Part shown: in pieces, positions 17,244 to 63,451 of the stretch | Numbering within the stretch: position 1 is the stretch's first letter | Layout: every line of letters begins with the position of its first letter | Virus record (IMG/VR): IMGVR_UViG_3300045988_175656 | DNA from: a virus | Length of the DNA: 64,000 nucleotides | Direction: 5' to 3' (one strand) | Notes under the pieces: model-generated | Database searches by the model: none | Told to the model about the DNA's origin: nothing | Seen by the model: only the letters and a program-made list of their open reading frames with translations | Position numbers and translations under genes: made by a program

Positions 17244-17272
17244 TTTAGTTTGATAATAATTATCAAACTAAA
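17244..17272 (+). promoter_or_regulatory. MASTF-leader palindrome, copy 1 (GA/TC variant)
   Basis: TTTAGTTTGATAATAATTATCAAACTAAA, a perfect 14+1+14 palindrome ending 5 nt before ATG 17278. Confidence 0.85.
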
Positions 17273-17277
17273 CAAAT

Positions 17278-17763
17278 ATGGCGAGCACATTTACAATTTT
17301 ACAAACAGGGAGAAGTCTATCTTATGCTTTTCAGCTAAATATAGATACATTAAATACTGATATTATTTTAAAAGAAGCCCACATTTATGGAAACCCAGAA
17401 GATATTATATTATCAGCTACCCAAGTAAGTTCTAATTCAATACAAATTGATATTACTTCAAACAACACAGTTGTACAAAATCCAAATGAAATACCATTAA
17501 CAGTTGCAATAGATTTTGGAATAATTGATACAGGTGATTATATATCTCTTAGTCTTAATGGGGAACAAACTATTACAAGTGCATGGTCAGACCATGATTT
17601 GTTAGAATGTGTACTTCCAAGTACACCATCTAGTTTAATATCATATGATATTGAATGTGTTAAAGAAAAATCTCCTTATTTTACATCAACAGTTGATTTC
17701 ACAGATGAAAATTTCCCATATACTATCAGATTAAGTGCTGAAATATTGGGAAATTTTCAATAA
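17278..17763 (+). CDS. MASTF-family protein 1
   Basis: N-terminus MASTFTILQTGRS, preceded by the leader palindrome and followed by a terminator cassette. Confidence 0.75.
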   Translation: MASTFTILQTGRSLSYAFQLNIDTLNTDIILKEAHIYGNPEDIILSATQVSSNSIQIDITSNNTVVQNPNEIPLTVAIDFGIIDTGDYISLSLNGEQTITSAWSDHDLLECVLPSTPSSLISYDIECVKEKSPYFTSTVDFTDENFPYTIRLSAEILGNFQ

Positions 17764-17785
17764 ACGAAATTCTTTATATAATTTT

Positions 17786-17815
17786 AACGAGAATCTTTTT
17801 AGGTTCTCGTTTTTT
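17786..17815 (+). terminator. rho-independent terminator, cassette copy 3
   Basis: AACGAGAA at 17786-17793 pairs with TTCTCGTT at 17804-17811, followed by a T-run. Confidence 0.7.
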
Positions 17816-17820
17816 ATTCG

Positions 17821-17828
17821 TATATTTG
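17821..17828 (+). promoter_or_regulatory. -7 box TATATTTG
   Basis: Directly follows the terminator, 21 nt before ATG 17849. Confidence 0.5.
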
Positions 17829-17848
17829 CAATATTAATTAATATAATC

Positions 17849-18211
17849 ATGAAAAATACATATAAATATTCTTGTAAAGTTGAAGTAAATGATGAAGATA
17901 CATTAAAAGAATTGTATGAATATTTACGACATCATAAATATGTTGTTGATAGTCCATATCAATCAGTTGGAAAATATTTAGCAAATATTTTAGTTACAGT
18001 TAATGATAAAAGATGGCTTTCATATTATCTTTATTATGAAAGATATGAAGGGTATGCTGTTTTAATAAGAAGTGATATTGAAAACTATCATACAAATACT
18101 ATTAATTGTGGTACTGATGTTGATTTATTTAAAAAATTAGTTATCATTAAATATGACGAAGATGATTTTGATTTAGGACTTTATAATGTATATAAAGCAT
18201 ATGAAAAATAA
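17849..18211 (+). CDS. hypothetical protein
   Basis: Internal ATG (MKNTYKY...) of track ORF 17735-18211, placed after the promoter. It shares an INCGTDVDLFKKL-type block with the 38841 ORF (FIDCGDNVDLLKVV). Confidence 0.6.
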   Translation: MKNTYKYSCKVEVNDEDTLKELYEYLRHHKYVVDSPYQSVGKYLANILVTVNDKRWLSYYLYYERYEGYAVLIRSDIENYHTNTINCGTDVDLFKKLVIIKYDEDDFDLGLYNVYKAYEK

Positions 18212-18620
18212 GTTATTAACAAGACAAGATTTTAAAGAAGAAGTTTTTAAAAGGGATAAACATAAATGTGTTGTTCCTGGATGTGAACAAAAAGCTGTTG
18301 ATGCACATCATATAATGGAAAGGAAATTGTTTTCTGATGGTGGTTATTATTTGAATAATGGAGCATCATTATGTGCTGAACATCATTTGGATGCTGAAAC
18401 AGGTAAAATAACAGTAAAGGAAATATTAGATTATGTTAAGATAGATATAGATGAAATTCCAATTCCTGATAATATAACAATTGTTGATTATGTAGGATTG
18501 ATAAAAACTGATTCACTTGATAAGTGGGGAGAAAGGAAGAAAGAAATTGATTCAATTAATGAATGGTGGAAACAATATGAAAATAAGAAAGTTAAAAAAG
18601 AAACTAAAGAAGAACAATGA
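18186..18620 (+). CDS. HNH endonuclease-domain protein
   Basis: CVVPGCEQKAVDAHHI...NNGASLCAEHH is an HNH signature. The start is uncertain (ATG 18186 or 18201). Confidence 0.6.
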   Translation: MYIKHMKNKLLTRQDFKEEVFKRDKHKCVVPGCEQKAVDAHHIMERKLFSDGGYYLNNGASLCAEHHLDAETGKITVKEILDYVKIDIDEIPIPDNITIVDYVGLIKTDSLDKWGERKKEIDSINEWWKQYENKKVKKETKEEQ

Positions 18621-18744
18621 TTTTGTTAAAATCATGTGGCTTAAACATGTTAAAGAATGGTGTAAATTAAGTCATAAACTTTATAATATCTATCCAACAA
18701 TTACTAAACATTATATAAAATTTTGCAATAATAAAATAAAATGA
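18577..18744 (+). CDS. possible small basic protein
   Basis: Internal ATG of track ORF 18517-18744. It still overlaps the HNH gene 3' end, so it is doubtful. Confidence 0.3.
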   Translation: MKIRKLKKKLKKNNDFVKIMWLKHVKEWCKLSHKLYNIYPTITKHYIKFCNNKIK

Positions 18745-18944
18745 AAAATATTATAAAAATAAAAATAGCTTTATGGATTATTTTATGTCCTCTTATTCTT
18801 ATGTGGTTGTGGAACTTTGTAATGCCTAAATTTGGCATTATTGAAATTAACTATATTGAAGCATTTGCATTAAGAATTATTACAAGTATTTTATTTAAAA
18901 CTAATCAATCTCTTTTAAATGATTTTAATGAGATAGGAAAATAA
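18741..18944 (+). CDS. small membrane protein
   Basis: Two hydrophobic segments in 67 aa. Confidence 0.45.
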   Translation: MKNIIKIKIALWIILCPLILMWLWNFVMPKFGIIEINYIEAFALRIITSILFKTNQSLLNDFNEIGK

Positions 18945-18957
18945 ATGAGAAATAGAA

Positions 18958-19560: not shown

Positions 19561-19576
19561 TTTGTTATTTTTTTCA

Positions 19577-19605
19577 TTTAGTTTACTAATAATTAGTAAA
19601 CTAAA
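19577..19605 (+). promoter_or_regulatory. MASTF-leader palindrome, copy 2
   Basis: TTTAGTTTACTAATAATTAGTAAACTAAA, preceded by TTGTTATTTTTTT and ending 6 nt before ATG 19612. Confidence 0.85.
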
Positions 19606-19611
19606 CAAACA

Positions 19612-19995
19612 ATGGCAAGTACTTTTAAAATTTATCAAGAGGGAAAACTCAATGATTATGATATTACAATAGATTTGCATACTGATGGTGATGCAGAAAG
19701 AGTAACATGTAAAATCAAATGGACTGATAGTGATGGTAATACTGGTAGTCAACAATTAGACACTGATAAAATTTCATCTTATACAATACATGTTAATGCT
19801 AATAATTCTATTTCTATAATAATTTCAGGAGTTGATATAATGTATTATAGAAATAAAGAAGAAGCTGAATGCTGTAATACTTCTGTATATGTTGAATGTA
19901 ATCCACCGCTTACATGGAGTGAAGGCGTAGATGAAATTTCAGGCGAATATCCAGGTGGTAATGCTTCTATATATGGTTATGGAGAAATATGCTAA
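19612..19995 (+). CDS. MASTF-family protein 2
   Basis: N-terminus MASTFKIYQEGKL. Confidence 0.75.
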   Translation: MASTFKIYQEGKLNDYDITIDLHTDGDAERVTCKIKWTDSDGNTGSQQLDTDKISSYTIHVNANNSISIIISGVDIMYYRNKEEAECCNTSVYVECNPPLTWSEGVDEISGEYPGGNASIYGYGEIC

Positions 19996-20016
19996 AAATA
20001 TAATTTAATATAAATT

Positions 20017-20059: not shown

Positions 20060-20086
20060 CATTATTAATTAATAACGAATAAAAAT

Positions 20087-30747: not shown

Positions 30748-31863
30748 ATGAGTAGAAAAAAGACATTAAATGAATTTATTGATAAGGCAAAAGAGGTACA
30801 TGGTAATAAATATGATTACTCAAAAGTGAATTATATAAACTCACAAGAAAAAGTATGTATTGTTTGCCATGAACATGGTGAATTTTGGCAGCTTCCATTT
30901 AAACATTTAAAAGGTCAAGGATGCCCAAAATGCTTTAGAAATAATCTTAGTGATATATTAAAATTTTCAATAGATGAATTTATCAAAAAAGCAAAAGAAA
31001 AACATGGATATAAATATGATTATTCAAAAGTAGAATATATAAATAATAAGACAAAGGTTTGTATCATATGTCCTGAACATGGAGAATTTTGGCAAACACC
31101 ACATAATCATTTAAAAGGTTATGGGTGTTCTAAATGCAGTGGAAATTATTTACATACATTAAATGAATTTATTGAAAAATCCAAAGAAATACATGGTGAT
31201 AAATATGGCTACTCTAAAGTAGATTATATTAATGCACTAACAAAAGTATGCATTGTTTGCTCTGAACATGGTGACTTTTGGCAAACACCACATAATCATT
31301 TAAAAGGTCAAGGATGTCCAAAATGCTTTTACACTAAAAATAGTGAAGAAAAGAAGCTAACTTTAGAAATTTTTATTGAAAAAGCAAAAGAGATACATGG
31401 TGATAAATATGATTATTCAAAAGTAAATTATAAAGGATTTCATGATAAAGTATGTATTCTTTGTAAAGAACATGGTGAATTTTGGCAAACACCTGCACAT
31501 CATTTAAGTGGACAAGGATGTAGAAAATGCAATGAAAGTAAATTAGAAAGAATAACAAGAATATTTTTAAAAAAACATAATATAATATCTATTCAAGAAA
31601 AGACTTTTGATTGGTTGATAAAAGACAAAAATCTAAAATTGGATTTTTATTTACCTGAATATAATGTAGCAATTGAATGCCAAGGAATACAACATTTTAA
31701 GCCAATTAATTATTTTGGTGGCTTAAAAGGATTTGAATATATTAAAAAATGTGATTTAATAAAAAAACAAAAATGTTATGAAAATGGTATTAAATTATTT
31801 TATGTCAATTATTATGATGACATAGAACAAAATTTATTAGAAATTATAAATAAATTAAAATAA
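30748..31863 (+). CDS. endonuclease with four tandem zinc-ribbon repeats and a Vsr/DUF559-like C-terminal nuclease domain
   Basis: Four ~63-aa repeats (HG.KYDYSKV.YIN...KVC..C.EHGEFWQ.P..HLKGQGCPKC), followed by LDFYLPEYNVAIECQGIQHF. Confidence 0.6.
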   Translation: MSRKKTLNEFIDKAKEVHGNKYDYSKVNYINSQEKVCIVCHEHGEFWQLPFKHLKGQGCPKCFRNNLSDILKFSIDEFIKKAKEKHGYKYDYSKVEYINNKTKVCIICPEHGEFWQTPHNHLKGYGCSKCSGNYLHTLNEFIEKSKEIHGDKYGYSKVDYINALTKVCIVCSEHGDFWQTPHNHLKGQGCPKCFYTKNSEEKKLTLEIFIEKAKEIHGDKYDYSKVNYKGFHDKVCILCKEHGEFWQTPAHHLSGQGCRKCNESKLERITRIFLKKHNIISIQEKTFDWLIKDKNLKLDFYLPEYNVAIECQGIQHFKPINYFGGLKGFEYIKKCDLIKKQKCYENGIKLFYVNYYDDIEQNLLEIINKLK

Positions 31864-37186: not shown

Positions 37187-37211
37187 AATATAATAAATTG
37201 TTATTTTTTCA

Positions 37212-37239
37212 TTTAGTTTACTAATAATTAGTAAACTAA
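37212..37239 (+). promoter_or_regulatory. MASTF-leader palindrome, copy 3
   Basis: TTTAGTTTACTAATAATTAGTAAACTAA, preceded by TTGTTATTTTTT. ATG at 37247. Confidence 0.85.
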
Positions 37240-37246
37240 TGAGAAA

Positions 37247-38170
37247 ATGGCTAGTACATTTACAATTAAACAAGAAGGATATGATGACCCATACACATAT
37301 AGACTTGGTATGGTTGGTAATGGAGTAAGATTATGTATTGCTCCTAAAAAGGAAGGTGGAAGTCAATTATTCAGAAAAGAAGATGAAAATATATGGACTT
37401 CCATTTCATATGATAATAATGGAAAATATATTGCTTGTGGTAGAACACCAAGTGGTACAGGGTGTATAAGTATTTCATCTGATAAATGTGAAACGTGGTC
37501 AGAGACAAAAATTTTAGGTGATATATGGGCTGGAGTTGCATGTGGAAATGGTAAATATGTTGTTGTTGGCAGAAACGGATATGTTGGCATGTCAACAGAT
37601 GGTGAAAATTGGGACATATCTCAAATTGATAATGATTTAAGTTGTTCAAGTATTGCTTATGGTAATAATATGTTTATTATTGTTGGTAATACCATATCAA
37701 CTCCAACTGCTCCTAAATCTTATGTATTAAAAAATGGTAGTGATGAATGGGTTGAACTTAAATATAGTTCAACAAGTTTTACTATTGAATCAATTACTTA
37801 TAGTGATTATTCAAACAGATTTGTTAGTGTTGGAAGTAGTTTAGCACTATCAACAAGAGATGCTGATTATTGGGATATTGAAAGAGTTGCAGATGGTGCT
37901 GATTTATATGCAGTTGCATATGTAAATAGAGAAATTGCAGTAGGTAATCATGAAGAAATTTATTATAATGGTGCAAATGGATGGAAATTAGTTCCATATG
38001 ATTCACCTGGTAATATTATATGGCTAAGTGTTGCTTATATTCCTGGAATGAAAGCTCATATAGCTGTTGGTACTTCAGGGTATTCAGTTGCATTTACAGA
38101 TAGTAATAATAGAACTGCAAAAACAAGGTTTTGGACTAAAGATTTATTATGTGTTATTAATGTTGTTTAA
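37247..38170 (+). CDS. MASTF-family protein 3 with beta-propeller-like repeats
   Basis: N-terminus MASTFTIKQEGYD. Six repeats each end in hydrophobic-x-V/A-G (GKYIACG, GKYVVVG, NMFIIVG, NRFVSVG, REIAVG, AHIAVG). Confidence 0.75.
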   Translation: MASTFTIKQEGYDDPYTYRLGMVGNGVRLCIAPKKEGGSQLFRKEDENIWTSISYDNNGKYIACGRTPSGTGCISISSDKCETWSETKILGDIWAGVACGNGKYVVVGRNGYVGMSTDGENWDISQIDNDLSCSSIAYGNNMFIIVGNTISTPTAPKSYVLKNGSDEWVELKYSSTSFTIESITYSDYSNRFVSVGSSLALSTRDADYWDIERVADGADLYAVAYVNREIAVGNHEEIYYNGANGWKLVPYDSPGNIIWLSVAYIPGMKAHIAVGTSGYSVAFTDSNNRTAKTRFWTKDLLCVINVV

Positions 38171-38202: not shown

Positions 38203-38661
38203 TTATCCTGATACATCATAAGTAAAACCATTATTTGAACTATCAATTATGACTTTAGTTTCATCATTCGATTTTAATTTAATTTCAAATACTTTTGCTG
38301 CTCCACTTGGTTTAGGGTCAATACATGAAATTACTCCATTTGGAAAATTTTCTGAACTACTATCATCCAAATAACAATATTCTGGGTTGTTGGTATTAGG
38401 ATTTATATATAACATATAAGAATCATCACCTGTGTTCTTATAATAATACTTTAATAAATTAAAATTATCCAATATTTCAATATCAACATATTGAAACCAG
38501 TTAAATGTAGGTGAATTACCACTATTTGTTTTTGCCTTTATTGGCAATTCATATATTCCACATTCCCACCATGAAGCATTTAGATATGATGATGATGAAT
38601 CAATATATGCAGTAACTAATTCTTCTTTTCCTTGTTGTATAATTGTAAAAGTGCTAGCCAT
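38203..38661 (-). CDS. MASTF-family protein 4
   Basis: N-terminus MASTFTIIQQGKE. Confidence 0.75.
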   Translation of the reverse strand: MASTFTIIQQGKEELVTAYIDSSSSYLNASWWECGIYELPIKAKTNSGNSPTFNWFQYVDIEILDNFNLLKYYYKNTGDDSYMLYINPNTNNPEYCYLDDSSSENFPNGVISCIDPKPSGAAKVFEIKLKSNDETKVIIDSSNNGFTYDVSG

Positions 38662-38668
38662 GTTTTGT

Positions 38669-38693
38669 TAGTTTACTAATTATTAGTAAACTA
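38669..38693 (-). promoter_or_regulatory. MASTF-leader palindrome, copy 4
   Basis: In gene orientation it reads TAGTTTACTAATAATTAGTAAACTA, preceded by TTGTTATTTTTTT. Confidence 0.85.
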
Positions 38694-38748
38694 TTTAAAA
38701 AAATAACAATTTTTAATATTTTTTATTCATACATTTCAATAAAAAGTT

Positions 38749-41534: not shown

Positions 41535-41541
41535 TGTCTTG

Positions 41542-41570
41542 TTTAGTTTACTAATTATTAGTAAACTAAA
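41542..41570 (-). promoter_or_regulatory. MASTF-leader palindrome, copy 5
   Basis: Full 29-nt palindrome, preceded in gene orientation by TTGTTATTTTTT. Confidence 0.85.
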
Positions 41571-41588
41571 TGAAAAAATAACAATTTT

Positions 41589-41891: not shown

Positions 41892-41897
41892 GTTTTG

Positions 41898-41926
41898 TTT
41901 AGTTTACTAATTATTAGTAAACTAAA
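41898..41926 (-). promoter_or_regulatory. MASTF-leader palindrome, copy 6
   Basis: Full 29-nt palindrome, 6 nt from the start codon. Confidence 0.85.
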
Positions 41927-42028
41927 CAAAAAAATTCATCTCCTATTTGCTTAAAATGAAACAACTTACAAAGTAATTTTCATTAATAACAAATTATGAA
42001 CAAATATTTATAGTAAAATTATAAAGAG

Positions 42029-47226: not shown

Positions 47227-48603
47227 TTAATAGTTAATATTATTAATATGTTTAAAGCATTCTTCTTTAGTGATAAGTGGGTTATTTAGCCATAATTTAG
47301 TTAAATAATCTAAATATAATTTAACTTTTGGACCAGGCTCTATATTCTTATATGATATAATATCTTCACCATTAACAGGAAGTTTTAGTTTAAAAGCATC
47401 TAATCCTTGTTCAACTAATTTATCACTTCTTTCTTTGATTAATCTTACCTGATTTGGCATACAATGGTCAGATTTATGTGCTCTATTATCTGCATCAATC
47501 AAATCCATTGTAAGTTCAAATGTGTCACCAAGAGCTAATTGTAATTTACGAACACTTTTATCTTTTAATTTTGCACAATCATCACCAAACGATTTAGTTC
47601 TCATATGAGCATTTACAGCCTTTCTAACACGTTTAATTATATCATTCGGGTATTTCATTGTTCTCATTCTAACCTCACTTAAAAAGGCTGAAACGTTCTC
47701 ATGATTGTAAAAATGAATTTTTCCATTTTCATCAACTGTTTTAGTTTTTATTTTACCTAAATCATGAAACAATGCAGCAACTCTATTTTCAAGAATTGGT
47801 TTTGTATTATCAACAACCATTAGTGTATGTTCCCATGCAGTTCCAAAATGATATTCATTCTGTTCAAGATTCACCATTTCAACAAAATCAGGAAGGACGT
47901 ACTGAAGTAAACCTGTTTTTTCTAACATTCTTAAACCAACACTCGGTTTTTTTGTTAAAAGAATTTTATTTATTTCATCAGTAACCCTTTCTTGTGTGAT
48001 AATTTGAATTCTTTCAACATTATCAATAATTCCTTGCATTGTTTTTTCTTCTATTTCCCATCCATAACGAGATGCAAATCTTATACAACGAAGCATACGG
48101 AGAGCATCTTGGTTAAATATAATATTTGGGTTAGAAGTAGAACGAATAATTTTACTATTTAAATCGTTTAGACCTTTTCCAGAAAAATCGTATAATTCAT
48201 CAGTTGATATATTAATAAACATTGAATTAATCGTAAAATCTCTTCTCAAACATTCTTCTTCAATTGTACAACTTTCCACTATTGGATTTCTTGAATCATC
48301 TTTATATTTTTCACTTCTTGGTGCAACACATTCGATTTTTTCTCCCATAAAATTGAACATAGCAGTTCCATAAAGTCCATAACAAAGAGGTGGATGTAAC
48401 TTCATCTTATCACAAAACCAAATTGCGAAATCTATACCTGCATTAATATCACCATCAATCAATAAATCAATATCATTTGACTGATTACCCATAATCAAAT
48501 CTCTCACATAACCACCAACTACCATAACTCTATTCTCATATTCAGTATTTTTGATAGTGTCTTTAATTGAAAGTAATATTTTATTTTCTATTTTAATATT
48601 CAT
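47227..48603 (-). CDS. cca: CCA-adding tRNA nucleotidyltransferase with C-terminal HD domain
   Basis: GGYVRDLIMGNQSNDIDLLIDG (the GG-x-VRD...DxD motif), RRDFTINSMF, RFASRYG, and HD motif FHDLGK. Confidence 0.85.
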   Translation of the reverse strand: MNIKIENKILLSIKDTIKNTEYENRVMVVGGYVRDLIMGNQSNDIDLLIDGDINAGIDFAIWFCDKMKLHPPLCYGLYGTAMFNFMGEKIECVAPRSEKYKDDSRNPIVESCTIEEECLRRDFTINSMFINISTDELYDFSGKGLNDLNSKIIRSTSNPNIIFNQDALRMLRCIRFASRYGWEIEEKTMQGIIDNVERIQIITQERVTDEINKILLTKKPSVGLRMLEKTGLLQYVLPDFVEMVNLEQNEYHFGTAWEHTLMVVDNTKPILENRVAALFHDLGKIKTKTVDENGKIHFYNHENVSAFLSEVRMRTMKYPNDIIKRVRKAVNAHMRTKSFGDDCAKLKDKSVRKLQLALGDTFELTMDLIDADNRAHKSDHCMPNQVRLIKERSDKLVEQGLDAFKLKLPVNGEDIISYKNIEPGPKVKLYLDYLTKLWLNNPLITKEECFKHINNINY

Positions 48604-49008: not shown

Positions 49009-49338
49009 ATGGCGAGCACATTTAAAATTATACAAGCAGCACATATAATAAAAAATGATTGTACAATTAGAATCAGTAGAGTAGGTGGTTCATGTGTAGA
49101 TATTAGAGCATCTATACCAACAACATCAAAAGTAAATGTATTCTTAAATATAACATATTCAGATGGTATGGGCAATCAAGAGGACATATGGTTAATTACA
49201 ATCCCAAAGGGAACAGAATCATCTTATAGAACTTGTTATGGAATGGGTGGAGATGAAATAGAAATAATGTCAGCTTCTCTTAACGATTTTTCGCCATCAC
49301 AAGACGATACAACAATTTATGATGTCATAGTATCTTAA
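49009..49338 (+). CDS. MASTF-family protein 7
   Basis: N-terminus MASTFKIIQAAH. Confidence 0.7.
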   Translation: MASTFKIIQAAHIIKNDCTIRISRVGGSCVDIRASIPTTSKVNVFLNITYSDGMGNQEDIWLITIPKGTESSYRTCYGMGGDEIEIMSASLNDFSPSQDDTTIYDVIVS

Positions 49339-49357
49339 AAAATTAAGTATTTTTCGA

Positions 49358-49386
49358 TTTAGTTTACTAATAATTAGTAAACTAAA
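49358..49386 (+). promoter_or_regulatory. MASTF-leader palindrome, copy 8
   Basis: Full 29-nt palindrome, 7 nt before ATG 49394. Confidence 0.85.
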
Positions 49387-49393
49387 CAAAATA

Positions 49394-49789
49394 ATGGCAA
49401 GCACTTTTAAAATTATGCAGCAAGGATATACACCATTAGTAAAAACATTATACATAAATGTTAGTGGAACTTCTGATTTAATCACAATAAACATTGTTGG
49501 TGATGATGGTAACTTTCATTATCCAACTTCAGTTTTATATTTTGCTCTTGAATTTAATTCAGGCGGTAATAGTTGTGTTGGAACTACAATAGATATTGAA
49601 TATAGTAATTTAGAAAATTCACCTATGTATATGAATGTAACAGGCGATTTTGGTAGTAGAACTATTAATAGAAATTCAATATCAATTACTGATTTAGGTT
49701 GTGATGGCAACTATGAAATACCAATTTATATATACTATGGTGGTAATCAATCAGATGATACCTATGATTATGTTGTAAGAGTTGTGTAA
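49394..49789 (+). CDS. MASTF-family protein 8
   Basis: N-terminus MASTFKIMQQGYT. Confidence 0.7.
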   Translation: MASTFKIMQQGYTPLVKTLYINVSGTSDLITINIVGDDGNFHYPTSVLYFALEFNSGGNSCVGTTIDIEYSNLENSPMYMNVTGDFGSRTINRNSISITDLGCDGNYEIPIYIYYGGNQSDDTYDYVVRVV

Positions 49790-49853: not shown

Positions 49854-50204
49854 ATGGCAAGCACTTTTACAATTTTACAAGATGGGTATGTACCATTAAA
49901 GCCACATATTAATATTCATCTTGAAGATGGAAATTATGGTACAGGGATGGACGGTTTTTTTATAATTGCAACTGCTGAAAAACCTGTTAATAGTAACTTA
50001 ACAATAACAGGTACAGTATATGCATTAGGAGATAATATTGAGAAAGAAATATCAAAGAATTTTACATTATATATAAATAAGTCATCAACAAATGGAGATA
50101 CACATGTATTTAATAATACGCCACAAATATGGTTAAATTATATGGACAATTTAAGTGTATCTCCAAATGAAGATTCATTATATTCATATGATGTTAATTG
50201 GTAG
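49854..50204 (+). CDS. MASTF-family protein 9
   Basis: N-terminus MASTFTILQDGYV. Confidence 0.7.
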   Translation: MASTFTILQDGYVPLKPHINIHLEDGNYGTGMDGFFIIATAEKPVNSNLTITGTVYALGDNIEKEISKNFTLYINKSSTNGDTHVFNNTPQIWLNYMDNLSVSPNEDSLYSYDVNW

Positions 50205-53694: not shown

Positions 53695-56600
53695 TCAAAA
53701 TGGGTTTTTCCATTTTGGTGGAATACTTGAATAGTTATTTAAATTATAACATTTATTAAAGCATCCAGTTCCACTTGGTGTACTTGGGTATTCAGGTTTA
53801 TTAGCTCTTTCCCACAATTCAATACCATCCGTTCCTGTTGGCGTATTTCCTGTTAAACTAGTACAGCCACTAAATGTACCATTAAAAGAAAGAACATTTT
53901 TGTTATTATCAAATAAATTATTTGGTATAGATGCTAAATTTTCACAATCCCTAAATACATTATTAAAATATCTTACATTTGGAGTATATACAAATAAATT
54001 TTCAGGTATTGAAACTATTTGAGGTAAATAACTAAATGTACCACTAAAACCAGTGACTAATATATTATATTTAAATAAATCTTCGGGTATAGTAGCTGTT
54101 AAACCTTTACAACCGCTAAATGTGTTTTCAAAGTCAACTACATTAGGACAATTTTTAAATAAATTTTCGGATATTACACCTGTTAAACCTGAACAATTAC
54201 TAAATACTCCACCTATTTTAGTGACAACAGTATTATTTTTAAATAAATTTTCTGGTATTTCCCCTATAATATTGGTTTTTGAAAAAAACAAATGAAAAGT
54301 TTGTACTTTAGTATTATTTTTAAATAGATTTTCAGGTATTGTGCCTGTTAAACCTATACACCCACTAAATGTACCTGTAAAATCAGTTACTTCAGGGCAA
54401 TTTACAAATAGATTTTCAGGTATTGTGCCTGTTAAACCTGAACATCCACTAAATGTTTGCCAAAATGATTCTGTTTTGGTATTATTTTTAAATAAATTTT
54501 CTGATATTGAACCTGTTAAACCTGAACAATTACTAAATGTAGTGTTAAAATATTTTACATTAGAACAATTTTTAAATAAATTCTCAGGAATAGAACCTGT
54601 TAAACTTGAACAGTAACTAAATGTATTGGCAAATGTTGTAACTTTTGTACAATTTGCAAATAAATTTTCTGGTATTGAACCTGTTAAATTTCTACAACTT
54701 CCAAATATGCCACCAAAATTTGTTACATTATAACAATTATCAAACATATTATCATATATAGCAGTAGTTAAGCCTGAACAACTTAAAAAACACCCACTTA
54801 AAGTTTCAAGATTATAACAATAATCAAAAAAACCTTTAGGAACTGTTATTAATTTATTACATTTGGCAAAAGTATAAGATAAATTTGTTACATTTGTAAA
54901 TGCTCCATAAGTATCTGTTGGAATACTTTCTAAATTAGTACAACCTGAAAACGCATATGATAAATCAGTAATACCCATCCATATACTACCCCAACTAACA
55001 ACTTTAGTTAATAATTCTGGATTAAAATTATGAGCATCTAATTTATCAAATGTCCCATTTATTGTAATTGTATATGTTCCTGTATTACTATATGTATGGG
55101 ACGGATTATTATTAGTTACTGTTTGAACTGCTGAATTATCTCCCCAATCAATTGTACAATTAACATTTCCTGATATTGGTAAATAAATTAAATTAGTTCC
55201 TAATGATGATATGGTATATTCTAATATCATTGGAAAAGTCTCGTTACAACGCCAAACTGGGTCTATTATATGGTATCTATTCAAATTAGTATCACGGCAA
55301 AAACATTGTGTTCCATTTATAGAACTTGGATAACCTGTTTGCCCTGCTCTTTCCCATAATTGTAAATTATCTGTACCTGTTGGCGTATTACCTGTCAAAC
55401 CTTTACAACCCTGAAATGTGTTACTGAAATTAGTTACTTTTTTGCAAACATCAAAAATATTATTTGGTATTGAACCTGTTAGACCTGAGCAATTATTAAA
55501 TAAATTAGCAAAAGTTGTTACTTCTTTATTATTAACAAATAACCCATCAGGAATAGATGCAATATTATAACATCCACTAAATGTAAAACTAAAGTTTGTA
55601 ACAATAGTATTATTGATGAATAATGTAGATGGAATAGATGTTAAACCTGTACAACTACTGAAAGCTCCACCAAAAGTTGTAACTTTAGTATTAGTTGAAA
55701 ATAAGTTAGATGGTATGGAATCCAATTTATTATCATTTTGAAAAATATTTAAGAAACTTGTAACTTCTATATTATTAGTAAATAATGTTTCAGGTATATT
55801 AACCAAATTACGACAAGAAGCAAATGCTGAACTAAAACCAGTTACATTGATATTATTTGCAAACAATGTTGATGGTATTGATGTTAAACTTGTACAAGAA
55901 CTAAATACACCTGCCATATCAATTACATTAATACAATTATCAAATAATTCTTCAGGAATTGATTGTAGCTTTGTACAATTATTAAATGTTCCATTAAATG
56001 ATGATACATTATAACAATGAAAAAATAAATTTCCTGGAATTGATACCAAATTGGAACAATAAGAAAATGTATTTAAAAAACTATTTACGTTAATAAATGT
56101 TTCATAATCGTCATTTGTAATTTCAACTAAGTTAATACATCTACTAAATGCATTGTCCATATTTGTTAATAATGTATTAGTATTACCCCAACTAATTATT
56201 TTAGTGACATTAGTTGAACAATTGTACATTCTTTCGAAATCACCATTTATTTTTACAATATAAGTTCCAGCAGTTTGATATGTATGGGATGGTCTATCAG
56301 ATGTAACAATTTCCTTACTACTTTCATTACCCCAATCAATTTCACAATTAACATTGCCTGATATTGGTAGTGTAACTATCAGATTATCAGGTAATACATT
56401 AAATTCTAATGTAAATGGAATTGGTGGAATTGGCTCAATCCAAAAATCACCTTCTTTTGGTTTATCAGGTGCAGTTTCACTAATAGTTATAGTTGGTATT
56501 GATGTATTTATTTTATCTAATGTATATTGTTTAGAACGAAACGGAACAATATCATCAGCATCATTTTTAACAAATAACGTTTCTTTACCAGTACTATTAT

Positions 56601-56700
56601 TTAATACTAATTCACCATTCTCTATTTCATTTATATCAGGAAAATAAACATCATTATTTAACAATGTGTTTGAATTTTTGATAATTACTATATCTTTCAT
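53695..56700 (-). CDS. BspA-type leucine-rich-repeat surface/adhesin-like protein, two-module
   Basis: 1001 aa with dozens of ~23-aa repeats (F..C..LTGSIPENLF.N...VT.F...F). There are two collinear modules. Each begins LPISGNVNC.IDWG...PSHTY...GTY...ING.F and ends GNTPTGTD..(Q/E)LWERA...YPS..(N/S)GT.CF. Confidence 0.8.
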   Translation of the reverse strand: MKDIVIIKNSNTLLNNDVYFPDINEIENGELVLNNSTGKETLFVKNDADDIVPFRSKQYTLDKINTSIPTITISETAPDKPKEGDFWIEPIPPIPFTLEFNVLPDNLIVTLPISGNVNCEIDWGNESSKEIVTSDRPSHTYQTAGTYIVKINGDFERMYNCSTNVTKIISWGNTNTLLTNMDNAFSRCINLVEITNDDYETFINVNSFLNTFSYCSNLVSIPGNLFFHCYNVSSFNGTFNNCTKLQSIPEELFDNCINVIDMAGVFSSCTSLTSIPSTLFANNINVTGFSSAFASCRNLVNIPETLFTNNIEVTSFLNIFQNDNKLDSIPSNLFSTNTKVTTFGGAFSSCTGLTSIPSTLFINNTIVTNFSFTFSGCYNIASIPDGLFVNNKEVTTFANLFNNCSGLTGSIPNNIFDVCKKVTNFSNTFQGCKGLTGNTPTGTDNLQLWERAGQTGYPSSINGTQCFCRDTNLNRYHIIDPVWRCNETFPMILEYTISSLGTNLIYLPISGNVNCTIDWGDNSAVQTVTNNNPSHTYSNTGTYTITINGTFDKLDAHNFNPELLTKVVSWGSIWMGITDLSYAFSGCTNLESIPTDTYGAFTNVTNLSYTFAKCNKLITVPKGFFDYCYNLETLSGCFLSCSGLTTAIYDNMFDNCYNVTNFGGIFGSCRNLTGSIPENLFANCTKVTTFANTFSYCSSLTGSIPENLFKNCSNVKYFNTTFSNCSGLTGSISENLFKNNTKTESFWQTFSGCSGLTGTIPENLFVNCPEVTDFTGTFSGCIGLTGTIPENLFKNNTKVQTFHLFFSKTNIIGEIPENLFKNNTVVTKIGGVFSNCSGLTGVISENLFKNCPNVVDFENTFSGCKGLTATIPEDLFKYNILVTGFSGTFSYLPQIVSIPENLFVYTPNVRYFNNVFRDCENLASIPNNLFDNNKNVLSFNGTFSGCTSLTGNTPTGTDGIELWERANKPEYPSTPSGTGCFNKCYNLNNYSSIPPKWKNPF

Positions 56701-56752
56701 TTATATAATATTTTACTTATAAATATCCCAAACACATTCTTACTTTTTTAAT

Positions 56753-56779
56753 TGCTTTACTAATTATTGATAAACTAAA
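56753..56779 (+). promoter_or_regulatory. MASTF-leader palindrome, copy 10 (degenerate)
   Basis: TGCTTTACTAATTATTGATAAACTAAA has imperfect symmetry. ATG at 56785. Confidence 0.6.
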
Positions 56780-56784
56780 TAAAT

Positions 56785-57813
56785 ATGGCAAGTTATTTTA
56801 AAGTTATGCAAGATGGAAGAGAAGTTGAGTTCTCTTTTTATCTTAATAATCTAGTTGTGAGAGTACCATACACCAATGGATATTTTTCTCTTGTAGGCGA
56901 AACATCTGATTCAATTGGCAGTGTTACAATTGTTTCAACAAAAGAAGGTGTTGATATTCCTTACACTATATCAACAAGTGATAGTTGGTTAACTTCAGAA
57001 ACAGGCAAAATTATCTTATCTGAAAATACAGGGGGAGAACGTAGAGGTACTGCGACAATTACACAAAGTGAAAGTGATGAAGATATTGTGATTACCTTTA
57101 TTCAAGAAGCAAAACCTGCTGACAATTATACATTTGCTTTTGTAAGCAATGATACTGTTGATTCACCTGCAAGTGGAATGTCATTTAATGTATATCTTGA
57201 AAGTTATAGTGGTAATACGCAAGACAATACAGTAGGAGCAACACACACATCTTTACCTGATTGGATTACAGGATGGGAAAGTGTTGATATGGGTACTGGT
57301 TATGTTGCATTTACAGGACGAACAGTTGCAAATGATACTTATCAAGATAGAACAGCAGTGATTACATTTACTCAAAATGAATCTGGAAAAATACTTAGAT
57401 TTACAGTTACACAAGAAGCTAAACAAGAGTTGAAAGTTCCAATGTCATGGGATATTAATTTTACTAATGATTCAACAACTCAAACAACTTCACGTTTCTA
57501 TTTAACATTAAGAGATGGTTCAAATTGGATTAATGCATTCTCTTTATTAAGAGGTCAAATGAATTCAGGTATAACAGAAAGAGAACAGGGTAGTTATACA
57601 AGTGGAACTGAAGAAGCGTTTACTGCAACATCATGTACAATATTATCAACATCAGGTAAAAGGGATTTATATTCGATTTATTTTAATGGTACATTAGTTA
57701 TACAAACAACTATTCAGGGTGATGGTAATGAACATACAGTTTCATTAAGAAGTCGTATTCCTGTTACTGGTTTAGAAATGAAATGGACTGGACAAGTAAC
57801 ATATATGGATTAA
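56785..57813 (+). CDS. MASTF-family protein 10 (variant MASYF) with BACON-like domains
   Basis: N-terminus MASYFKVMQDGRE. Two segments end RRGTATITQSESDEDIVITFIQEAK and RTAVITFTQNESGKILRFTVTQEAK, the typical ends of BACON domains. Confidence 0.7.
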   Translation: MASYFKVMQDGREVEFSFYLNNLVVRVPYTNGYFSLVGETSDSIGSVTIVSTKEGVDIPYTISTSDSWLTSETGKIILSENTGGERRGTATITQSESDEDIVITFIQEAKPADNYTFAFVSNDTVDSPASGMSFNVYLESYSGNTQDNTVGATHTSLPDWITGWESVDMGTGYVAFTGRTVANDTYQDRTAVITFTQNESGKILRFTVTQEAKQELKVPMSWDINFTNDSTTQTTSRFYLTLRDGSNWINAFSLLRGQMNSGITEREQGSYTSGTEEAFTATSCTILSTSGKRDLYSIYFNGTLVIQTTIQGDGNEHTVSLRSRIPVTGLEMKWTGQVTYMD

Positions 57814-57848: not shown

Positions 57849-57876
57849 ATGTACTAATTTTTGTTATTTTTTATGA

Positions 57877-57903
57877 TAGTTTACTAATAATTAGTAAACT
57901 AAA
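57877..57903 (+). promoter_or_regulatory. MASTF-leader palindrome, copy 11
   Basis: TAGTTTACTAATAATTAGTAAACTAAA, preceded by TTGTTATTTTTT. It has the longest spacer, 14 nt, to ATG 57918. Confidence 0.85.
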
Positions 57904-57917
57904 TAAATACAAACAAC

Positions 57918-58865
57918 ATGGCGAGTACTTTTAAAATTACACAAGAAGGTAAAATTTCAGATATATATGAATTTGAATTTTACAGCCCATCAGGGGAAAC
58001 AGATGTTACCATTAATGCAAATTCATCTTCGGGTGAAGATTCCACTATTAGTAATGTTAAATCATTGAAAAATGGTTCTTATATTGGATATAATAGGGAA
58101 ATTGGTTGTTCTTGGGTTACTTTTCAAACAGGTTCATTATATTGGGAAAAGAATACAAATGGAACACCTAGAACTTGTGTTATTACATTAACACAAAATG
58201 AAAGTAATAAAAAAATGTATATTAGAATTAACCAAGCAGGTGAATATACATTTAAATGGGATGGTACAGATAATACTAATGTACAAGATACTGTGGATTA
58301 TAATGCAAGTTCTTTTAATAATGGATGGTCTAAAACAAGAAATGTTATAAGTGAATATAATTATGACAAAATTAGTTGGTCTGCCACAACAGATGCTTCT
58401 TGGATAACTCCAACATGGAATTCATCAACAGGTCAAACTAATTACATGACATTAAAAATTAATTCAGATAATACAGGAAGTAGTACACGTACAGGTGTAG
58501 TTACATTGAAACAAGATGTATCAAATAAAATACTGACTTGGACTATTATACAGCAAACACAAGCTCAGTATAAACCATCTATTTACTTCAAAGTATCACC
58601 ATTTAGTACTTATATATTTAATATTCAAATAGACACTGAAAAAAGTGCATTTAATGCTAGACCTTATAGTGAGTTACAAATTGAATGTACTTGGCATTCA
58701 AGTAGTGGTAATGTAGTTTATCATACTTTAAAATTTCCAGCTGATGCTGAAGAAAGTGAATTTTATTCAATACCTGAAGGTGATAGACCAACAACGTTAA
58801 CTAATGCAGTTACTATTGTGAATATAACTCCATCATTTGATAATGTATATTATTATCGTATTTAA
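57918..58865 (+). CDS. MASTF-family protein 11 with BACON-like domains
   Basis: N-terminus MASTFKITQEGKI. Contains CSWVTFQTG...PRTCVITLTQNESNKKMYIRINQ and ASWITPTW...TRTGVVTLKQDVSNKILTWTIIQQ. Confidence 0.7.
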   Translation: MASTFKITQEGKISDIYEFEFYSPSGETDVTINANSSSGEDSTISNVKSLKNGSYIGYNREIGCSWVTFQTGSLYWEKNTNGTPRTCVITLTQNESNKKMYIRINQAGEYTFKWDGTDNTNVQDTVDYNASSFNNGWSKTRNVISEYNYDKISWSATTDASWITPTWNSSTGQTNYMTLKINSDNTGSSTRTGVVTLKQDVSNKILTWTIIQQTQAQYKPSIYFKVSPFSTYIFNIQIDTEKSAFNARPYSELQIECTWHSSSGNVVYHTLKFPADAEESEFYSIPEGDRPTTLTNAVTIVNITPSFDNVYYYRI

Positions 58866-59354: not shown

Positions 59355-59472
59355 AATTTATAGGTTTTACCTATAAATATATCTCACGTTTTTAATTTAT
59401 ATTGACAATAATTCGTTTAAAATTCATTAACACAAATTAGATTTAATTATATAATTACCTATGAAGTATAAA

Positions 59473-60256: not shown

Positions 60257-60262
60257 TTTTTT

Positions 60263-61587: not shown

Positions 61588-61588
61588 A

Positions 61589-62024: not shown

Positions 62025-62030
62025 AATATT

Positions 62031-62228
62031 TTAATTAAATGTAATTACTATATGTTGAGATAAAAATACAATTGTTTCAATTAAAAAACCAAAAAGAAAT
62101 ACACTACCTATAATAGCAAATCTTTTATATTTTTTGATTGAATAATCATTTAATAATGCTGAATTGAATATGTACCATATCCAACATGTAAGTCCTAATA
62201 TTAAAAATATAATACTCGTTATTGCCAT
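62031..62228 (-). CDS. small two-TM membrane protein
   Basis: Two hydrophobic helices in 65 aa. Confidence 0.5.
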   Translation of the reverse strand: MAITSIIFLILGLTCWIWYIFNSALLNDYSIKKYKRFAIIGSVFLFGFLIETIVFLSQHIVITFN

Positions 62229-62422
62229 GTTATTTGTATATTATTACCAACAATAAAAATTACAATAGTTTCTATAAAAATTAGAAGTATAAATCCAATT
62301 AATATTGAATTTATAATATATCCATCTGATTTTTCATAAGAAGTATCTGTCATTAATATTTTAATGAAGCAGAACATTATCATAAACGATATATAAAGTA
62401 CATTTGTTCCTGTAACAAGCAT
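62219..62422 (-). CDS. small two-TM membrane protein
   Basis: Two hydrophobic helices in 67 aa, adjacent to a similar gene. Confidence 0.5.
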   Translation of the reverse strand: MLVTGTNVLYISFMIMFCFIKILMTDTSYEKSDGYIINSILIGFILLIFIETIVIFIVGNNIQITWQ

Positions 62423-62492
62423 AACTAATTGTTTTATTATTATGGTACAAAGATATGAACTAATATTTAGTTTACCAAATTTAAAATGTTAA

Positions 62493-62828
62493 TTAATCTT
62501 TAATTGGTACAATTTTATATCCACAATCTTTTAATGCTTCTTCCATAAAAGCCATTCCACAGTTACTACCTAACCATTGAATAATAGTTGATGCAATTAG
62601 TTTATCATTTGGTGACATAACATGATGCCAAGAACCATCATCAGCAATAAAAAGGTCTTGAAGTATTCCATTCCCTCGATTAATCCAAGAACATTTAGTA
62701 TTGTTCTTTCTCCAATGTTTAGAAAATGCTTCTTCTCTTGGATTTGTTTCATTCAATCTATGATTATGAAATCCAATATAACGTTTGCCAATTGTTTTAG
62801 CTTTTTGTTTCATTTCTTCACTATCCAT
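62493..62828 (-). CDS. hypothetical protein
   Basis: Start moved to the ATG at 62828 (MDSEEMKQ...), downstream of the promoter box. Confidence 0.55.
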   Translation of the reverse strand: MDSEEMKQKAKTIGKRYIGFHNHRLNETNPREEAFSKHWRKNNTKCSWINRGNGILQDLFIADDGSWHHVMSPNDKLIASTIIQWLGSNCGMAFMEEALKDCGYKIVPIKD

Positions 62829-62853
62829 ATATAAATCTATTTTTAATACTATG

Positions 62854-62861
62854 CAAATATA
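62854..62861 (-). promoter_or_regulatory. -7 box TATATTTG (minus strand)
   Basis: The plus strand reads CAAATATA. The minus strand reads TCGTATATTTGCATA. Confidence 0.5.
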
Positions 62862-62917
62862 CGAATTAATTATGAACAAAGAAAAAATATTTTAATAAAA
62901 TATGTGAATTTTTGCGA

Positions 62918-63029
62918 TTAGTTTAATAATAATTATTAAACTAATTAACAACACAGAAAAATGTCATCTCTGTAACCATATATGGCGTTATATGGGAAAG
63001 TCCCTCAAAATTTTTTGAGGGATTTTTTG
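62918..63029 (+). pseudogene. orphan MASTF leader: palindrome variant plus ~55 nt plus terminator (gene remnant or small RNA)
   Basis: TTAGTTTAATAATAATTATTAAACTAA at 62918-62944 is a compensated A/T variant. It is followed only by a 4-codon ATG (62961) and a stray ATGGCG (62982), then the terminator TCCCTCAAAATTTTTTGAGGGATTTTTT (63001-63029). Confidence 0.5.
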
Positions 63030-63052
63030 TTATATAATGTTATTTTTTTAAG

Positions 63053-63077
63053 TAGTTTACTAATAATTAGTAAACTA
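63053..63077 (+). promoter_or_regulatory. MASTF-leader palindrome, copy 13
   Basis: TAGTTTACTAATAATTAGTAAACTA, preceded by TGTTATTTTTTT. Confidence 0.85.
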
Positions 63078-63085
63078 ACAAAACA

Positions 63086-63451
63086 ATGGCAAGCGAATTT
63101 AGAATTTACCAATATGGTAAACCAAAACCTATTACAGTAAAATGGAGTATGGTAAATAACATGCAAAATCCACCTGCTTGTATTCAATCATTCCATTTTT
63201 ATTTTAATAATGGAAAAACTATAAATATACAAGGTGGTGGTGGAATATGTTATGGTAGTACAAGAAATGGTACTATAAGTGGGATAGCATCTGCAAGCGA
63301 TTTTCCACTCACAATAACATCTTATGAATATCAATATTCTAGTAATCCTAATACCTCTGGAATGAACTATTCTGTAAACATTTCATCTTATACATATAGT
63401 GATTATCAACAAGGAAAAACATTAGAAATTACAGTTAACAGTTATATTTAA
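63086..63451 (+). CDS. MASTF-family protein 12 (variant MASEF)
   Basis: N-terminus MASEFRIYQYGKP. Confidence 0.7.
   Translation: MASEFRIYQYGKPKPITVKWSMVNNMQNPPACIQSFHFYFNNGKTINIQGGGGICYGSTRNGTISGIASASDFPLTITSYEYQYSSNPNTSGMNYSVNISSYTYSDYQQGKTLEITVNSYI

Follow-up and report, generated by a model that had tools for sequence, protein, structure and literature searches.

The 64-kb stretch of viral DNA analysed here (IMG/VR virus record IMGVR_UViG_3300045988_175656; 64,000 nucleotides, called the window below) contains a dispersed family of twelve genes, each of which combines the same palindromic leader and the same short N-terminal peptide, the tag, with a protein body of its own. The term family is used for genes that have both the shared leader and a MASTF-type N-terminus. 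The common cassette is about 95 nt long and consists of a T-rich box, a palindrome, an A/C-rich spacer of 4–14 nt and the first 11–13 or so codons. A search for its signature that took in some 3 million viral contigs, 241 million records from metagenomes and 1.84 billion representative proteins found it in a single clade of human-gut contigs of ~380–400 kb and nowhere else; the anatomy of the leader and the composition of the tag were derived from 82 distinct copies. When orthologues are compared, leader and tag prove to have moved between paralogues without the body, by recombination or gene conversion.

The cassette, which appears to belong to a Jug-like jumbo phage of Bacteroides or Phocaeicola, has been attached to at least 16 kinds of body that are unrelated to each other, of binding type, mostly acidic and rich in beta-structure. 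With a probability of roughly 45%, the sequence comparisons suggest that the shared block makes these genes a separate regulon, controlled by a promoter-proximal hairpin or an operator, and that its tag docks the proteins to a common partner, probably on the virion, by beta-strand addition.

The exchange is seen in orthologues whose bodies are nearly identical. The 117-amino-acid (aa) proteins of L009 and L036 are 100% identical past residue 20, while their palindromes are of the AC and the GA variant, respectively, with four coordinated base differences. The body of the 100-aa protein encoded at 41891 is 96% identical to that of its orthologue in L058, and yet the palindrome is of the other variant and three tag residues differ. 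In the L068 orthologue of the 121-aa gene (63086), the tag reads MASTFTIFQEG instead of MASEFRIYQYG. Mismatches of leader or tag on near-identical bodies also occur in the 121-, 127-, 131-, 152- and 161-aa subfamilies. In 115 pairs with a body identity of at least 90%, the mismatch rate per site is 15.4% at tag positions 6, 8 and 10 and 3.7% in the bodies, about a fourfold difference. Since palindrome and tag differ on bodies that are 96–100% identical, these cases are direct evidence for recombination or gene conversion. An earlier, sequence-only reading of this DNA had offered three explanations of the block, a regulatory leader, a docking, packaging or processing tag, and a recombination handle, and the handle is the only one of them to be directly supported.

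Exchange through a dedicated recombinase is very improbable. On that explanation the cassette would be a site-specific recombination unit, similar to an integron attC element or a shufflon, with the palindrome as the recombinase site. Palindromes of 25–29 bp with an asymmetric centre do resemble recombinase core sites, copies are found in both orientations, cassette content varies by phage group and the tandem arrays vary as well, and in L014 and L080 a leader with a short MASTF open reading frame (ORF) lies beside an IS1595-family transposase. However, the order and orientation of the members are syntenic in related genomes, each copy has its own start codon, so that inversion would alter nothing, no recombinase is associated with the family, and the block of homology reaches into the coding region, as in homologous exchange. 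Integron-like and shufflon-like cassettes were rejected because of the conserved synteny and the separate ATG of each copy.

Members of the family in the window

The twelve family ORFs start at 17278, 19612, 37247, 38661(-), 41534(-), 41891(-), 49009, 49394, 49854, 56785, 57918 and 63086, and the genes are named below by these positions. Their N-termini follow the pattern MAS(T/Y/E)Fx(I/V)xQx(G/A) and the proteins are 100–342 aa long; starts, peptides and lengths are all as the sequence-only reading gave them. Scores in the list are those of a covariance model of box and palindrome, built on 35 distinct leaders and run on the window with filters off.

17230–17274, leader with box and GA-variant palindrome; 17278–17763 (+), gene for 161 aa, MASTFTILQTG, 66.9 bits, followed by an intrinsic terminator
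19562–19607, leader; 19612–19995 (+), gene for 127 aa with 5 Cys, MASTFKIYQEG, 61.4 bits, terminator downstream
37198–37242, leader; 37247–38170 (+), gene for 307 aa, MASTFTIKQEG, 66.2 bits, body a seven-bladed beta-propeller
38665–38709, leader; 38203–38661 (-), gene for 152 aa, MASTFTIIQQG, 64.7 bits, all-beta and sandwich-like
41540–41584, leader; 41082–41534 (-), gene for 150 aa, MASTFRINQDG, 69.4 bits, second in a tandem pair
41896–41940, leader; 41589–41891 (-), gene for 100 aa, MASTFIINQVG, 63.1 bits
48960–49005, leader; 49009–49338 (+), gene for 109 aa, MASTFKIIQAA, 58.8 bits, first in a three-gene tandem array
49344–49388, leader; 49394–49789 (+), gene for 131 aa, MASTFKIMQQG, 66.4 bits
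49806–49850, leader with GA-variant palindrome; 49854–50204 (+), gene for 116 aa, MASTFTILQDG, 62.7 bits
56737–56781, degenerate leader (8/12 pairs); 56785–57813 (+), gene for 342 aa, MASYFKVMQDG, 28.4 bits, BACON domains
57861–57905, leader; 57918–58865 (+), gene for 315 aa, MASTFKITQEG, 62.7 bits, BACON domain
62903–62975 (+), leader-only copy: box and symmetric variant palindrome ATTAGTTTAATAAT-A-ATTATTAAACTAAT, then a four-codon ORF, MSSL*, at 62961–62975, 56.5 bits
63037–63081, leader; 63086–63451 (+), gene for 121 aa, MASEFRIYQYG, 64.3 bits

The model, of a kind that the sequence-only reading had proposed, matches exactly 13 sites in the window and no others above noise. Eleven of the 13 score 58.8–69.4 bits; the leader-only copy (62903–62947) and the degenerate leader (56737–56781) have the lower scores listed above, and the best match elsewhere, at 16.7 bits, is noise. 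The T-rich box is an exact TTGTTATTTTTT in six copies and TGTTATTTTTT in a seventh, as had been noticed before, and a family palindrome adjoins 8 of the 9 exact TGTTATTTTT sites in the window. The leader-only copy is a decayed member, and the same remnant with MSSL* is kept in the related contigs L003, L004 and L006. A GC-rich intrinsic terminator closes most of the member genes. Within the tandem arrays 41891>41534 and 49009>49394>49854, each gene has its own leader and no terminator lies in between.

The palindromic leader and its possible promoter context

The palindrome before each family gene is TTTAGTTTACTAAT-A-ATTAGTAAACTAAA or a symmetric variant, with the T-rich box further upstream. 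The box, nATTTTT[T/G/C], ends 2 nt before the 14-nt palindrome arm in a fixed register, while the distance from the end of the 29-nt palindrome to the ATG varies from 4 to 14 nt; box and palindrome therefore behave as one unit. The stem is perfect over 12–14 bp and A/T-rich (GC 0.13–0.22). Positions 1–12 are essentially always Watson-Crick paired in the 82 copies and positions 13–14 are paired in part, and the central base is A in 69 copies and T in 13. Five stem positions vary, solely as compensated pairs: AC/GT becomes GA/TC in 22 copies, and the other changes are T-A to G-C, T-A to C-G and G-C to C-G. In L039, a compensated 1-bp insertion makes both arms longer. In an alignment of 35 sequences, 99.7% of the cells are paired and five pairs, with 21 cells, are double-changed, values that none of 500 shuffles reaches; sliding the partner by 1–3 columns reduces pairing to 18–56%. 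The stem is thus kept by compensatory changes, that is, by structural selection, which fits an RNA hairpin, a DNA hairpin and palindrome correction alike. Folded as RNA, the hairpin has an energy of about -11 kcal/mol (z = -3 to -5) and the A-rich start region stays open, except that no stable hairpin forms in the leader of 56785. Rfam has no match in the 64-kb window. Apart from the one decayed copy, the palindrome is strictly coupled to the tag.

The palindrome might instead function only as a double-stranded DNA operator for a dimeric repressor or activator of phage or host, with the RNA hairpin incidental. The perfect dyad with its free central base would suit such a site, as would the very strong conservation of the arm sequence beyond pairing, the lack of G-U wobble in intact copies and the fixed register beside a promoter-like box, which is like that of an operator centred near +13. 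This alternative is nevertheless somewhat unlikely, since a dimer that tolerates both half-site variants should accept hybrids, whereas the five variable positions change as compensated pairs only and no hybrid half-sites are found in the 82 copies, although correction of a quasi-palindrome or conversion of the whole palindrome could give the same pattern; moreover, the 1-bp insertion in both arms of the L039 copy would shift the half-site spacing.

Other assignments of the leader were rejected. An intrinsic terminator would require a different arrangement of the runs, as the coding strand has its T-run 5' of the hairpin, and on the other strand the hairpin is followed by an A-run. The single-stranded hairpin promoter of phage N4 has a stem of 5–7 bp, not 12–14 bp, and nothing was found to mark this phage as N4-like or crAss-like. 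A sigma-70 promoter (-35/-10, TTGTTA ... AATAAT) would have a spacing of 18–19 nt, and the host promoters in the window are of the Bacteroidota type.

Canonical TAnnTTTGCA sites (mostly TATATTTGCA) number 22 in the window, compared with 8.7 expected, for example at 3326, 6769, 11187, 20052 and 52727. They usually follow immediately after a GC-rich terminator, and their excess supports a Bacteroidota host. None is found in the family leaders. The box in these leaders matches 6–8 of the 8 positions of TAnnTTTG, with the final G in a minority of copies, and there is no consistent TTTG at -33. The earlier statement that the family lacks TAnnTTTG promoters is thus correct for the canonical TAnnTTTGCA and too strong for the box.

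The box may be a weakened Bacteroidota -7 element, a TAnnTTTG without its G. In that case the mRNA would begin at the base of the palindrome, with a hairpin of about -11 kcal/mol at its 5' end. The palindrome could also, instead or in addition, serve as the operator of a dimeric protein, and under either mode of control the family genes would form one regulon apart from the TAnnTTTGCA genes. The separate regulon with a hairpin in the 5' untranslated region (UTR), as proposed by the sequence-only reading, is favoured by the covariation, by the coupling of palindrome and tag and by the distinction from the 22 TAnnTTTGCA promoters; all of these arguments come from sequence. The box itself comes close to the host -7 element. 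The late timing that had been suggested for the family genes is unsupported.

A third promoter-like motif, ATATTTATA[A/G]GTAAAA, is present at 56711–56726(-) and 59365–59380(-), 10–15 nt before the start codons of a 1001-aa DUF285/PKD gene and of the 59354(-) gene. A similar motif that is one base shorter, ATATTTATAGTAAAA, lies just before the 42029(+) start, ahead of an 801-aa gene. The motif may represent a promoter class for the RNA polymerase of the phage itself.

The tag and the bodies behind it

In the tag, codon positions 1 and 2 are near 2 bits (range 1.4–2.0), while third positions carry 0.4–1.0 bit at GCN, AGY, ACN and GGN. Since the wobble positions vary and the residues are constant, selection acts on the peptide. 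The tag is invariant among orthologues with body identities down to 46%. The conserved F5, I7, Q9 and G11 alternate with the variable positions 6, 8 and 10, a sequence pattern that is the signature of one face of a beta-strand; the turn xGK comes next, and then a second strand in which hydrophobic residues alternate. Towards the end of the tag only Q9 and G11 are invariant; between them, Glu occupies position 10 in 27 of the 82 copies, the others having A, D, Q, Y, T or S. The codons themselves are biased as well. Ala2 is encoded by GCG in 36% of the copies compared with 4% genome-wide (window genes), as in codons 2–3 at 17281–17286, Ser3 is always AGY, with AGC at 50% compared with 4%, and codon 6 is always ANA (K, T, R or I). 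GC-biased gene conversion and an RNA-level constraint are candidate causes of this codon use, and the former would account for the GCG and AGC excess.

These codon biases bear on the proposal that the tag has no function of its own and that selection acts on a regulatory and translation-initiation cassette, whose conversion tract reaches about 35 nt into the coding region and leaves a harmless first strand. The bias at codons 2–3 would fit GC-biased conversion or an RNA-level requirement, and the constant ANA of codon 6 is in the same vein; leader and tag travel between paralogues as a single block, palindrome and tag are never apart, and the tag strand is packed into the domain in the model of the 152-aa member. 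Even so, the proposal is doubtful. The variation is strongly codon-periodic, the conserved residues alternate like one face of a strand, and the tag remains unchanged across orthologues at 46% body identity, whereas conversion alone, though it evens out the copies within one genome, leaves the consensus free to drift from one phage group to the next.

A profile of the first 30 residues (30 columns), searched against the 1.84 billion representative proteins, gives 28 hits at E <=1e-3, of which 25 match target residues 1–30 and are family members. One of the three others is an 855-aa lipoprotein with nine tandem BACON domains, in which tag positions 6–26 align repeatedly with the junction between domains, where the last strand of one domain is joined through the linker to the first strand of the following one (TLTITQQGKSLEPVFSID; QTLTITQQGKSLEPVFSID). 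In the 56785 and 57918 proteins, the internal BACON domains likewise end in the same weak motif. In sequence, the tag looks like an orphan terminal strand of an immunoglobulin-like (Ig-like) domain, a resemblance rather than proven homology.

The bodies fall into about 16 BLAST subfamilies without profile-profile similarity between them; across 15 of these, hhalign gives a best probability of 16%. Their lack of relationship is confirmed at the level of the fold, where a propeller, BACON repeats and small beta-sandwiches are found. The sequence-only reading, according to which the members share nothing else, therefore holds for the bodies as a whole and has to be modified in two respects, the second strand pattern after the tag and a C-terminal motif, [ST]P[SN]x[DE]...YxYxV. 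The motif is present in about 5–6 of the 16 subfamilies (for example SPSQDDTTIYDV, SPNEDSLYSYDV and TPSFDNVYYYRI), including the products of 49009, 49394, 49854, 38661 and 57918 and their relatives, and may point to a last strand in common or to some of the small members being partly homologous.

Nine small or propeller members have no match in Pfam, and searches of the larger members against NCBIfam and PDB sequences gave nothing useful. The 307-aa protein of 37247 is modelled by AlphaFold2 as a seven-bladed beta-propeller, with a predicted local distance difference test (pLDDT) value of 86.2 and a predicted template-modelling (TM) score of 0.87. Foldseek relates the model to WD40, Ycf48 and Kelch propellers, with TM scores up to 0.73 and E about 1e-9 (1.6e-9 for Ycf48), and although the protein itself has no Pfam hit, its homologues at E 6e-19 carry PF13088 (BNR_2) and PF25852. 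Its closest non-phage relatives are Bacteroides proteins with 28–37% identity, such as B. intestinalis EAJ06_02840. They start with a lipoprotein signal (lipobox), followed by a Cys, acidic residues and a Pro/Glu-rich linker, at the position taken by the tag in the phage protein, which has no signal peptide. Residues 1–16 of the propeller model have pLDDT <50 and no regular secondary structure, so the tag is predicted to be a free extension on this member.

Three subfamilies contain BACON domains (PF13004; cut-off 25 bits), with 34.9 bits (E 1.5e-8) in the 56785 protein and 29.3 bits (E 8.8e-7) in the 57918 protein. The 152-aa member, which has 25 orthologue clusters and no Pfam domain, is modelled by AlphaFold2 as an all-beta sandwich (pLDDT 69) in which the tag strand pairs with residues 12–20. 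Besides its own orthologue A0A8S5RYN8 ('Myoviridae sp. ctNQV2'), a Foldseek search with this model returned generic Ig-like hits only (E >0.01). The isoelectric point is 4.1–5.4 in 11 of the 12 family proteins.

The nature of these bodies also bears on the proposal that the tag is a capsid-targeting sequence (CTS) like that of T4, which would direct the proteins, for instance anti-defence effectors, to the prohead core, be cleaved by the prohead protease and allow ejection into the host with the DNA. A conserved N-terminus of about 10–12 aa on unrelated, mostly small proteins, each with its own leader, would be in keeping with such a role, the capsid of a phage of about 390 kb is roomy enough for many internal proteins, the tag is unstructured on the propeller model and the conserved I-x-Q...G could serve as a processing site. 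The proposal is nonetheless improbable. The end of the tag has no conserved Glu (Glu10 in 27/82) or other invariant cleavage residue, and no link to a protease was found; the family proteins are strongly acidic, whereas the internal proteins of T4 are basic; the identifiable bodies are of extracellular glycan-binding types, namely BACON and a propeller related to surface lipoproteins; and a 307-aa propeller or a 342-aa multi-domain protein is unlikely to pass through the tail channel.

A role of the tag as a degradation or processing signal that gives all members a common short half-life is hardly to be expected. The A-S-T-F-K-I left after removal of Met does resemble the ClpX N-motif-1 (polar-T-hydrophobic-basic-hydrophobic, here S-T-F-K-I), through which ClpXP would act and which is seen in Dps (STAKL) and lambda O (NTAKI). 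Position 6, however, is Lys or Arg in only about 60% of the copies and otherwise Thr or Ile, and the conservation extends to Q9 and G11, outside the motif. We know of nothing about ClpX recognition in Bacteroides.

If the tag docks the proteins to a common partner, as the preferred reading has it, MASTFxIxQxGK would be an amphipathic N-terminal beta-strand that stands in place of a bacterial lipoprotein anchor and attaches the modules by beta-strand addition to an acceptor that all of them share, most likely at the surface of the virion. Exchange of leader and tag keeps the cassette uniform and lets it capture or swap bodies. The docking or packaging tag of the sequence-only reading gains indirect support from the peptide-level selection, from the replacement of the lipoprotein signal, from the lack of structure on the propeller and from the likeness to a BACON strand; no partner was found.

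Several observations weigh against this reading. Intact stems have no G-U pairs and the arm sequence is strongly conserved, which fits a DNA site or quasi-palindrome correction equally well, and with its degenerate palindrome the BACON member 56785 functions or has at least been retained. Most boxes are without the G of TAnnTTTG and Jug phages encode an RNA polymerase subunit of their own, so that the promoter may have been wrongly assigned. The similarity between tag and BACON is weak, with 9–12 bits per repeat. In the 152-aa model, the tag strand packs in a hairpin with residues 12–20 at pLDDT 80–86 and may therefore simply be the first strand of the domain. In a search for an acceptor, a domain without its last strand, over 548 kb of related loci, BACON-like domains were found in family members only. 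Finally, co-regulation, timing and docking of the family are all inferred.

A bolder version of the docking idea, which we regard as unlikely, treats the tag as a universal donor strand. It would place 12–15 swappable glycan- or host-binding modules on one virion acceptor or polymerise them head-to-tail, with the leader as their common control and the block as a recombination handle that captures modules, including some from Bacteroides surface lipoproteins. Such a plug-and-display system would have no described phage counterpart.

A dozen genes under one control element and with one tag would amount to a major functional module, so far without annotation, in a virus that is abundant in the gut. 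Docking of the proteins to the virion, if it takes place, would explain how a giant phage diversifies its adhesion to host or mucus, and the tag, at 11 residues, would be ready for use in display on engineered Bacteroides phages. A regulatory hairpin or operator in the leader would be the first cis-element to be defined in Jug phages. The exchange of leader and tag, for its part, is a clean natural example of a phage fitting a ready expression-and-targeting unit to new domains.

Distribution, host and other elements of the window

The palindrome core, looked for as an exact match, and the degenerate peptide-coding pattern ATGGCNAGYACNTTYNNNATHNNNCARNNNGG, looked for independently, retrieve the same handful of IMG/VR contigs, which are 215–380 kb long, and the matches of the coding pattern in IMG/VR are confined to one clade of contigs. 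In the metagenome collection, all low-GC matches come from human-gut assemblies, on contigs of up to 381,678 and 398,575 bp. All but five of these matches carry a palindrome with 12/12 pairs, the exceptions being L057 with 11/12 and the MASYF BACON subfamily, whose degenerate leaders have 8–9/12. The high-GC soil matches of the coding pattern have no palindrome, which marks them as chance matches, and a chance origin of the signature itself was rejected.

The human-gut contigs that carry the family are 376,957–398,575 bp long and form one clade, and the GC content of the window is 0.23–0.30. Judged by size, GC content, habitat and links to Bacteroides, the clade is consistent with the Jug phages, which have genomes of 360–402 kb with 27–30% GC, inhabit the human and animal gut, infect Bacteroides and Phocaeicola, encode their own RpoC-like RNA polymerase subunit and are reported to account for about 1.1% of human-gut metagenome reads (PMC12880540).

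One connection to Bacteroidales is a low-GC segment of 1.6 kb, which comprises a family leader, a 38-aa MASTF ORF and an IS1595-family transposase and is present both in the phage-like contig L014 (3432–5058) and in the 11-kb contig L080 (1–1621), with 91% identity. The remainder of L080 (47–52% GC) contains ArdC, Toprim/DUF3991 and DUF4099/DUF3945 genes that are typical of Bacteroidales conjugative elements. The shared segment reflects either transfer mediated by an insertion sequence (IS) or an assembly chimera at the IS, and under either origin it links the phage to a Bacteroidales host.

The genes next to the family encode LRR, PKD and DUF285 proteins, which bear a weak resemblance to sequences annotated as tail proteins. 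The 1001-aa gene at 53695–56700(-) has tandem repeats of 84/168 nt at 54304–54738, which encode DUF285/LRR-like repeats of a putative adhesin or tail protein. Also among the family genes are a CCA-adding enzyme or poly(A)-polymerase-family protein (47227–48603(-); PolyA_pol and HD) and an RlaP-type nucleotidyltransferase (39732–41033(+)); no tRNA genes were found in the window.

Farther from the family, a CRISPR-like array at 1604–2242 has about 10 copies of a partly palindromic 36-nt repeat, GCTGTTTATGATATATAAATATATTGTATAAACAGG, with unique spacers of about 30 nt and a period of 65–68. It lies directly downstream of a 393-aa ORF (191–1372) that has matches to the TnpB family of RNA-guided endonucleases (NCBIfam NF040570 at E 4.9e-16, short of the curated cut-off) and to a PHROG 'transposase' (E 1e-31). 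Judging from these matches, 191–2242 may be a very compact Cas12/TnpB-type system on a jumbo gut phage. An HNH/homing endonuclease gene at 30748–31863 has an internal duplication of about 190/390 nt (30763–31493) and fits the abundance of homing endonucleases reported for Jug phages (PMC12880540).

Comparison with known systems

The leader-tag family appears to be undescribed, in agreement with the sequence-only reading, which knew of no family with this signature. A set of 50,697 phage records contained no match to 19 kb of the sequence (megablast) or to the 152-aa member (tblastn), there is no Rfam match in the window and no Pfam match for the small members, no relevant use of the word 'MASTF' was found in the literature, and none of the words palindrome, promoter, N-terminal and paralog occurs in the main text of the Jug-phage paper (PMC12880540).

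Several known systems share single features with the family. A hairpin or dyad just after a promoter-like element and before an unstructured translation start is also seen in 5'-terminal stem-loops that stabilise mRNA, such as that of the ompA 5' UTR, and in lac-type operators with their centre just after the start site; the family element differs in that it conserves sequence as well as structure across about 80 copies, and its start site is inferred. Phages with multiple receptor-binding proteins, such as CBA120 with its tailspikes, G7C with gp63.1/gp66 and RaK2, K64-1 and Kp24 with branched fibres, likewise have a common N-terminal attachment element and variable C-terminal bodies, but their anchors are folded domains of 100–300 aa rather than a strand of 11 aa, and there is no palindromic leader. 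In donor-strand complementation, as in chaperone-usher pilins and the type V pili of Bacteroidia, a short terminal strand with alternating hydrophobic residues, comparable to F5 and I7, precedes an Ig-like or beta domain, and the tag resembles the final strand of the BACON Ig-like domain. This likeness is one of sequence pattern alone, and no acceptor with an incomplete fold was found in the 548 kb of related loci. Tandem BACON repeats are known from crAssphage and other gut phages (PMC6949934). With these repeats and with Bacteroides lipoproteins the family shares BACON subfamilies, propeller homology and the gut-Bacteroidales niche, although the lipoproteins have a signal peptide where the family proteins have the MASTF tag.

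The closest analogues are the capsid-targeting sequences of T4 and the PeSL cassettes, and the family belongs to neither, since it fails a defining feature of each. The CTS of T4 sits on IPI, IPII, IPIII and Alt. As in the family, phage proteins that are mostly small and otherwise unrelated have an N-terminus of about 10 residues as their sole common part, a conserved upstream region precedes each gene separately, and the internal-protein locus of T-even phages is a hot spot of gene replacement. The family tag, however, has neither sequence similarity to the CTS nor the cleavage site with its conserved Glu (L/I-x-x-E), its proteins are acidic with bodies of glycan-binding type, and its palindromic leader has no T4 counterpart.

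PeSL (promoter-early stem-loop) repeats of T4-type phages, which consist of a promoter and a stem-loop, precede ORFans in plastic regions, and recombination between copies shuffles genes (PMC2839356, PMC4122927). Recombination between copies is common to both systems, and in the family the exchange of leaders between paralogues is seen directly. The stem-loop of PeSL is G/C-rich, lies upstream of a sigma-70 promoter and acts as a terminator, whereas the A/T-rich stem of the family comes after the box, no U-run follows it, and separate GC-rich terminators stand behind the genes. Furthermore, PeSL ends before the coding region, while the block of the family includes 11–13 codons that are under selection at the level of the peptide.

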